This document shows, piece after piece, positions 7,361 through 8,657 of a stretch of 64,000 bases of DNA. The position numbers and the translations under genes are program-made. A model generated the notes under the pieces. That model made no database searches. It was not told the DNA's origin and was given only the letters and a program-made list of their open reading frames with translations. How positions within the stretch are numbered: position 1 is the stretch's first letter; each line of letters begins with the position of its first letter. The stretch lies in assembly GCF_988242995.1 (NCBI RefSeq), contig NZ_OZ547043.1; one strand, given 5' to 3'.

Positions 7361-8656
7361 CATGAAAGCCCGCGCCCCACAAGACTTTGGTGAATGATGA
7401 ATTTTTAAATCGCGACATTACTTTTATCGTAAAACCCATCATGTTGATCTTTTTTTTCGATCAATTTGACCATCTTATTTCAGTGTGATCTTATCCTTTC
7501 TTTTTGATGGATAGCACACCATGAACGGACTAAGCCTTTTGGATCAAATTTCAATTATTCACGATTATCGCCAGTCCTGGAAAACCAGTTACAGCCTGGC
7601 GGATATCCTTTTTCTGACGATCACCGCCATTATCGGTGGCGCTGAAGGATGGGAAGAAATTGCTGATTTTGGTGAGGAGCATCTGGAATGGTTACGCCTG
7701 TATGGTGATTTTGAAAATGGCACCCCCTCCCATCACACGATTGCCCGAGTGATGGGAATGATTTCAGCAAAACAATTACAGCCCCTTTTTATCCAGTAGA
7801 TGAAGGACTGTCACACGTTGTCTGAAGGCTCTGTTGTGGCGATTGATGGTAAGTCATTACGGGGTACTTACGATAAATCGAAACGTAATGCCGTGATCCA
7901 TAGGGTCAGTGCTTTTAGCGCAGAAAATCGTCTGGTTTTGGGGCAGGTGAAAACAGGGGCAAAATCGAATGAGATAACGGCGATCCCGGAACGGCTCCAG
8001 TTGCTGGAATTAAAAGGGTGTCTGGTCACGCTGGATGCAATGGGTTGCCAGCATATAATCGCCCGTGAAATTCTGAAAAAGAAAGCCGGTTACCTGCTGG
8101 CGCTGAAAGGAAATCAGGGAAAATTAGCGGAGGCGTTTGATAACGGGTACTCGCCGACAATGTGGCTGGGTGAGAGGTATGACAGTTACAGCACGCAGGA
8201 AAAAGGGCATGGACGGGAAGATACACGATGCTGCATTGTGAGCCATGATTTAACCGCTCTGGGTGATTTAGCTTATGAATGGTCAGAGCTGAGCACGATA
8301 GGAATAGTGCTGGCGAGCAGACAGGAAGGAGAAACAGCGGTGAAATCAGAGAAGTGTATTCTTCGCTACTACATAAGTTCGGTGACGCTTACGGCGAAAG
8401 AACTCCTGGAAGCAACACGAGCACACTGGTCGGTAGAAAATCAACTGCACTGGCGACTTGATATGGGGATGCGGGAAGATGAATGCCAGATTGTTCGTGG
8501 AGAAGCGGGAGAAAATCTGGCAGTTTGTCGACATATCGCGATGAATTTACTGACCGCAGAGAATAGCTTTAAAGCGGGTATTAAACGCAAGCAAAAGCGG
8601 GCAGGACGTAAGAATGAATACCTTTCTCTAATCCTTGCTGGCTGCGGGCCTTCATG
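7361..8656 (+). mobile_element. H-repeat (ISAs1-family) element, copy 1, approximate boundaries
   Basis: Terminal sequence catgaaagcccgc (7361-7373) has an inverted counterpart gcgggccttcatg at 8644-8656; a ~110-bp leader is conserved with the second copy at 14101-14215; contains the interrupted H-rpt transposase ORF. Confidence 0.5.
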
Positions 8657-8657
8657 A
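7521..8657 (+). pseudogene. H-repeat-associated (ISAs1-family DDE) transposase interrupted by an in-frame amber codon
   Basis: ORFs 7521..7799 and 7800..8657 share one frame, separated only by TAG at 7797-7799 (…LFIQ*MKDCH…). Combined length 378 codons equals the intact paralogue at 14358..15494, about 50% identical by eye. Confidence 0.75.

Follow-up and report, generated by a model that had tools for sequence, protein, structure and literature searches.

Results

A split transposase gene beside an Rhs locus

The window is a 64,000-nt stretch of contig NZ_OZ547043.1 (RefSeq assembly GCF_988242995.1). At the left edge of an rhsE-type Rhs locus, between a yncG pseudogene and an Rhs core gene, it carries an insertion sequence (IS) that we call copy A (Table 1). 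A distance of 411 bp separates the end of copy A from the Rhs core ORF downstream, and copy A is in that sense an Rhs-linked element; a second element, copy B, lies further downstream. The neighboring yncG gene (6510-7109) is a pseudogene in the window, where it is read as two ORFs (6510-6923 and 6948-7109) and lacks 7 bp at ~6904 relative to the other carriers of copy A that were compared. PGAP annotates yncG as frameshifted, with an internal stop in most carriers.

Table 1. Features of the copy A locus and its surroundings (positions in the window).
Feature	Position	Strand	Remarks
Complete ISAs1-family (H-rpt-like) IS, copy A, 1318 bp	7350..8667	+	Ends placed by alignment to five intact relatives from short metagenome contigs
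Left terminal inverted repeat CAGGGAAAAAGCATGAAAGCC	7350..7370	+	Sequence and alignment of relatives
Codons 1-92 of the transposase	7521..7796	+	Almost exactly the N-terminal DDE_Tnp_1_assoc domain (PF13808, residues 8-94)
Amber TAG in place of ancestral TGG (Trp93)	7797..7799	+	Trp/TGG in intact relatives; TAG in all carriers
Codons 94-378 plus stop, DDE catalytic domain	7800..8657	+	D109, D172 and E306 retained
Right terminal inverted repeat GGCCTTCATGATTTCGCCCTG	8647..8667	+	Contains the transposase TGA stop; sequence and alignment of relatives
Rhs core protein gene	9079-13290	+	Shares the near-identical block with copy A
Pentapeptide-repeat gene	13287-13772	+	Overlaps the Rhs core gene; presumably an immunity gene; part of the same near-identical block as copy A
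Isolated left end (125 nt) of a further copy-A-type element	14089..14213	+	82% identical to 7350-7474; abuts copy B directly
Canonical H-rpt copy B (ydcC/ISEc5 type), 1291 bp	14214..15504	+	Intact 378-codon ORF 14358-15494; annotated ydcC or 'ISAs1-like element ISEc5 family transposase'

The transposase frame of copy A begins with an ATG at 7521 and is open for 92 codons, up to the TAG. A second ATG follows the TAG directly, in the same frame, and opens 285 codons that end in a TGA at 8655-8657; the whole frame (7521-8657) therefore comprises 92 + 1 + 285 = 378 codons plus the stop. When codon 93 was read as a sense codon, the joined protein matched the NCBIfam equivalog NF033564 (ISAs1 family transposase) at residues 29-344, in a single stretch across the stop, with a score of 386.7 bits against a cutoff of 70 (E 7e-116). 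It also matched the Pfam families DDE_Tnp_1_assoc (PF13808) and DDE_Tnp_1 (PF01609, residues 102-343), both above their gathering scores. Because the NF033564 match spans the stop, the pairing of the two ORFs (7521-7799 and 7800-8657) is not due to chance. With codon 93 as sense, copy A encodes a single transposase within the ~370-380 aa typical of ISAs1 elements, containing both domains.

The amber codon lies where the N-terminal DDE_Tnp_1_assoc domain gives way to the DDE catalytic domain, and leaves the latter untranslated in frame with the N-terminus. Apart from the amber, the ORF contains no frameshift and no further stop. D109 (AIDGK), D172 (DAMGCQ) and E306 (HWxxEN) do not vary among the aligned proteins, and copy A retains all three; by analogy with the DDE_Tnp_1 family, they are presumably the catalytic triad.

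These observations bear out part of the original prediction, which had described an H-rpt transposase gene made of two ORFs in one frame, parted only by a TAG that was its one frame-disrupting lesion, and equal in reconstructed length to ydcC; the intact ORF of copy B is likewise 378 codons long. The prediction had gone on to say that a single mutation separates this gene from a functional transposase, and this holds for the reading frame only. At three columns conserved in ≥95% of a 109-protein alignment, copy A deviates from its relatives (L158R, V195L and E234D), a number within the range of the intact relatives, which deviate at 1.3 such columns on average and at six at most. These substitutions, the lack of a target-site duplication and the single-copy state leave function unproven. 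The amber is the one obvious disabling lesion of copy A, although others may exist.

The ends of copy A

The terminal inverted repeats of copy A are 21 bp long and imperfect: the reverse complement of the right end, CAGGGCGAAATCATGAAGGCC, matches the left end at 17 of 21 positions. Position 6 of the left repeat is A in copy A and C in four of five relatives, and the right end reads ...GATTT(C/T)GCCCTG in all six aligned elements. One of the metagenome contigs (L009) consists of exactly one 1318-bp element, from CAGGG... to ...CCCTG. In genomes without copy A, homology to the upstream flank (query from 6700 or 6500) ends at ~7349-7357, that is, at the left end of the element. In its length and its short terminal inverted repeats copy A conforms to the ISAs1 family (~1.2-1.35 kb). 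An automatic inverted-repeat search did not report the terminal repeats of copy A, and the ends were recovered only through the alignment of relatives.

There is no target-site duplication around copy A, as the flanks ...GGTAGCGTAT and CGGTTAGAGG... share no direct repeat; this fits either an old insertion or a junction made by recombination. A scan of 7200-9200 for promoter and terminator consensus sequences gave counts equal to the shuffled expectation and so no support for an outward promoter. Five nucleotides outside the right inverted repeat, position 8672 is T in the window, where all carrier loci and metagenome contigs compared have G; 7300-8900 contains no other difference between the window and these carriers.

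Codon 93 was ancestrally TGG

Tryptophan occupies position 93 in 18 of 18 aligned intact relatives with 49-83% identity and, in a leave-one-out analysis of the larger alignment (in which this column is ≥95% conserved), in 109 of 109 intact full-length relatives. The DNA of this codon is TGG in all five intact relatives that were fetched, and in copy B. Alignment of H-rpt genes, which had been proposed as the way to find the ancestral sense codon, thus gives TGG, and the single point mutation that had been postulated can be specified: on this comparison, the lesion of copy A is one G-to-A transition, TGG to TAG, at Trp93. A Dcm hotspot was ruled out as the source of this change; the inferred ancestral CCAGTGG, read from the sequence, is not a CCWGG site.

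The amber allele is fixed among known copies

To determine the distribution of the allele, 5,426 complete RefSeq E. coli genomes were surveyed. Some part of the 1137-bp CDS was present in 145 of them, always as a single chromosomal copy and in nearly all at 100% identity. A 61-mer centred on the TAG was 100% identical in every complete genome containing that part (140/140), and these strains come from many hosts and countries. An exact pattern that left the middle base of codon 93 open (N) matched nine contigs in the JGI metagenomes, all nine with TAG, and had no match in the GTDB species representatives. The agreement of 140 independent assemblies and nine contigs excludes a read or assembly error; resequencing had been named as the way in which a sense codon might come to light at 7797-7799, and these assemblies already answer that point.

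Copy A was not found on plasmids; each of the 140 genomes has one chromosomal copy. In a tblastn search against plasmids, the best match was 63% identical (Proteus terrae), which speaks against a plasmid-borne progenitor. No intact allele was found among 5.8 billion proteins, the closest full-length relative in this set being at 83% identity. The near-identical protein entries are C-terminal fragments from E. coli, 273-285 aa for the longest and no more than 285 aa among the cluster members read; one 279-aa form occurs on at least 1000 contigs. Every inspected carrier that retains codon 93 bears the RefSeq/PGAP label "ISAs1 family transposase; pseudo; internal stop", so copy A is already known as an annotated pseudogene in public E. 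coli genomes. In the literature we found nothing on the amber allele, only the general remark in a genome paper that H-rpt transposition has not been observed (PMC3032704).

The inactivation had originally been called recent. The occurrence of the same TAG in all carriers and metagenome contigs, and of no sense allele in the collections searched, contradicts this. The word applies only loosely, in that a second frameshift or stop has yet to accumulate.

Possible signs of relaxed constraint

Diversity among carriers is almost nil. Four distinct CDS variants were found, all nonsynonymous (I74L, E218G, Y220D and E331A). E331A occurs in two complete genomes; the other three variants come from metagenome contigs, of which at least one had low coverage. 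Two of the four variants, I74L and E331A, strike residues that do not vary in the family. In this tiny sample of four changes, the variants may point to relaxed constraint on copy A. We also compared branch-specific dN/dS with the five nearest intact relatives; dS was above 1 or undefined, which left only dN comparable and gave no reliable date. With dS saturated, and thus on dN only, nonsynonymous divergence along the copy A branch was ~1.5 times that of the sister lineage.

In three carriers, copy A has been broken up or partly lost, through IS1-associated rearrangements or recombination, which fits a dispensable element. In NMBU_W05E18 it lies between two IS1 copies, the first 41 nt are missing and yncG has the inverse orientation relative to the copy; in U1 only its first 51 nt are left, beside an IS1. 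The third case is JNEC-KY178, described below. Apart from the amber, the ORF is well kept and its decay minimal; from the sequence alone, one or both halves could conceivably still be in use.

Copy A lies in a near-identical Rhs block

The near-identical block (~6930-14213) takes in copy A, the Rhs core gene, the pentapeptide-repeat gene and the 125-nt IS fragment. Over its scored part (7110-14213, ~7.1 kb), only 5 sites differ between the window and three other carriers (about 0.07%; ~99.9% identity). Divergence from the same three carriers amounts to 1.1-3.4% in pqqU, yncE, ansP and yncG and to 6.6% in copy B. The left limit, ~6930, is set by the last differences in yncG, and the right limit, 14213/14214, is where near-identity with the carriers stops. 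Such a near-identical block between diverged flanks bears the signature of a recently exchanged Rhs block, with its right junction exactly at an H-rpt end. Since the amber codon is part of a block that appears to have been exchanged between E. coli backgrounds whose flanks are 1-3% apart, the mutation would predate the spread of the block.

The window genome is distinct from those surveyed: its flank at 3500-7349 (yncE-ansP-yncG) reaches no more than 98.2% identity with any of the 5,426 complete genomes, and its narZ region no more than 99.5%. These values place it outside that set and suggest an E. coli lineage poorly represented in the complete-genome collection.

Two metagenome contigs (L019 and L020; compare window 9170-12827) combine an identical amber copy A with Rhs cores that are only 92-93% identical, with the differences clustered. 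The pattern indicates that alleles were replaced within the Rhs gene while the IS upstream of it stayed constant; the IS would serve as a stable left anchor. In the window, copy A and the 125-nt fragment have the same orientation and bracket the Rhs core gene and the downstream gene like direct repeats.

In strains without copy A, the point after yncG (window 7349/7350) carries a 154-nt left-end remnant of a ydcC-type H-rpt (L011 6674-6827, L012 6656-6810), followed by a T6SS PAAR-VgrG module and, in one strain, by a gene with an S-type pyocin domain and an immunity gene. The point after yncG is a swap site for different toxin modules. In strain JNEC-KY178 (L015 1855-3334), copy A is reduced to its last 334 nt, which are fused to the intact ISAs1 transposase gene of a second Rhs element, an apparent case of recombination between two H-rpts that set two Rhs genes in tandem.

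Discussion

Copy A is very probably a structurally complete but dead ISAs1-family IS, inactivated by a TGG-to-TAG change, fixed in that state, and carried as a neutral single-copy relic in a shared Rhs block. A G-to-A transition turned the family-invariant Trp93 codon into an amber codon and disabled the only transposase ORF, with translation expected to halt at the junction of the N-terminal and DDE catalytic domains. The mutation arose outside the window genome, and all known copies of this IS variant share it. The amber copy would then have traveled within the ~7-kb Rhs toxin block, by vertical inheritance or by homologous recombination among E. coli lineages, and since its inactivation would have been neutral and immobile. 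The lack of a functional product and the neutrality of copy A are what we infer; the lesion, its ancestral state, its fixation, the boundaries of the element and the shared block are demonstrated by the comparisons above.

A sequencing or assembly error as the origin of the TAG, or a mutation private to the window strain, can be virtually discounted. The identical 61-mer in all of the independent assemblies and metagenome contigs refutes it, and the window genome has the same allele despite its distance from every genome surveyed. Suppression of the amber by a natural or suppressor tRNA, giving some full-length active transposase or amounting to low-level regulatory recoding, is highly improbable. 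Low-level UAG readthrough does occur in E. coli, and the ORF 3' of the stop is intact. However, the residue placed there by readthrough would in all likelihood be Gln, Tyr or Lys, where all 109 relatives have Trp; a stop at codon 93 occurs in 0 of these 109 proteins, so the position is not a conserved recoding site; a tRNA scan of the window found no tRNA gene and hence no local suppressor; and an element present once, at one locus, in 140 genomes and never on a plasmid shows no sign of transposition.

A functional split of the gene is likewise very unlikely. Here, the 92-aa N-terminal domain would act as a DNA-binding inhibitor of related ISAs1 transposases or as a local regulator, possibly with reinitiation at TAGATG to give the 285-aa DDE domain. 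The stop does lie at the domain boundary, an ATG follows it immediately, and both halves are otherwise intact; truncated transposase N-termini are inhibitors in other IS families. Against this, Met94 is as invariant in the family as Trp93, and the Trp-Met pair is ancestral in the aligned intact relatives, which makes the juxtaposition of TAG and ATG an accident of one base change rather than a purpose-built restart. No Shine-Dalgarno-like sequence precedes 7800, none of the intact relatives in the 109-protein alignment is split in this way, the CDS variants are all nonsynonymous and include changes at the invariant I74 and E331, and the copy has been lost or disrupted without replacement in some carriers. 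It is also very unlikely that the amber-split IS is retained because it is of service, either by providing transcription or a regulatory signal for the orphaned Rhs core gene that follows after 411 bp, or through trans-inhibition of the co-resident ydcC-type H-rpt by the 92-aa product. What keeps this idea alive is the near-perfect preservation of both half-ORFs; copy A also occupies the position held in other strains by the upstream PAAR-VgrG module. We favor the neutral relic over each of these readings.

As a relic, copy A shows cleanly how one Trp-to-amber change can kill an IS transposase, the dead copy being carried passively in an Rhs toxin block common to E. coli lineages. Its importance beyond annotation is slight. 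The amber codon is neither a sequencing error nor something to 'correct', and the 273-285 aa 'ISAs1 family transposase' entries in the databases are fragments of this pseudogene. The region also illustrates how recombination junctions in the variable rhsE/T6SS-effector locus are marked out by the ends of H-rpts.

Comparison with known ISAs1 elements

Copy A resembles the H-rpts of E. coli Rhs loci (ydcC/ISEc5 and yhhI/ISEc1) in its NF033564 family membership, its single ORF of 378 codons, its CAGGG termini and its linkage to an Rhs core gene. It differs from them in being 1318 and not 1291 bp long, and in lying upstream, not downstream, of the Rhs gene. Copy B, which is 96.8% identical to K-12 ydcC, is a canonical 1291-bp element of the ydcC/yhhI type. 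The ydcC gene of the window had been taken for a paralogue of the split gene, and the relationship proves to be distant: the two proteins align without gaps at 50% identity and the DNA is ~65% identical, copy B being a separate ISEc5-type element. Copies A and B belong to different ISAs1 subgroups and are no recent paralogues.

The rhsE locus of K-12 offers a parallel in fate. It holds a dead ISAs1 copy of a third type, yncI', which has a frameshift plus stops; stop-interrupted H-rpt genes are therefore routine at Rhs loci. The two dead copies are only ~67% identical at the DNA level, and copy A has a single stop where yncI' has several lesions.

The closest intact relatives are ISAs1 elements from Aeromonadaceae and metagenomes, which share with copy A the 1318-bp architecture, the ends and the untranslated leader. 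Their proteins are 83% (P0001, P0002) or 76-79% (P0003-P0007) identical to that of copy A, with those of Oceanisphaera at 66-67%, and the P0001 cluster takes in a transposase from 'uncultured Tolumonas sp.' Unlike copy A, these elements have TGG at codon 93 and intact ORFs, and typically lie on short contigs that hold little else. Because dS against copy A is saturated, none of these intact relatives is its direct progenitor. RefSeq/PGAP records also exist for the very same locus, an example being the pseudogene CA897_RS12345 (NZ_CP042899.1), annotated as 'ISAs1 family transposase; pseudo; internal stop'. Its CDS is identical to that of copy A, and the two loci differ only around the feature, the flanking genes in the window coming from another E. 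coli background.
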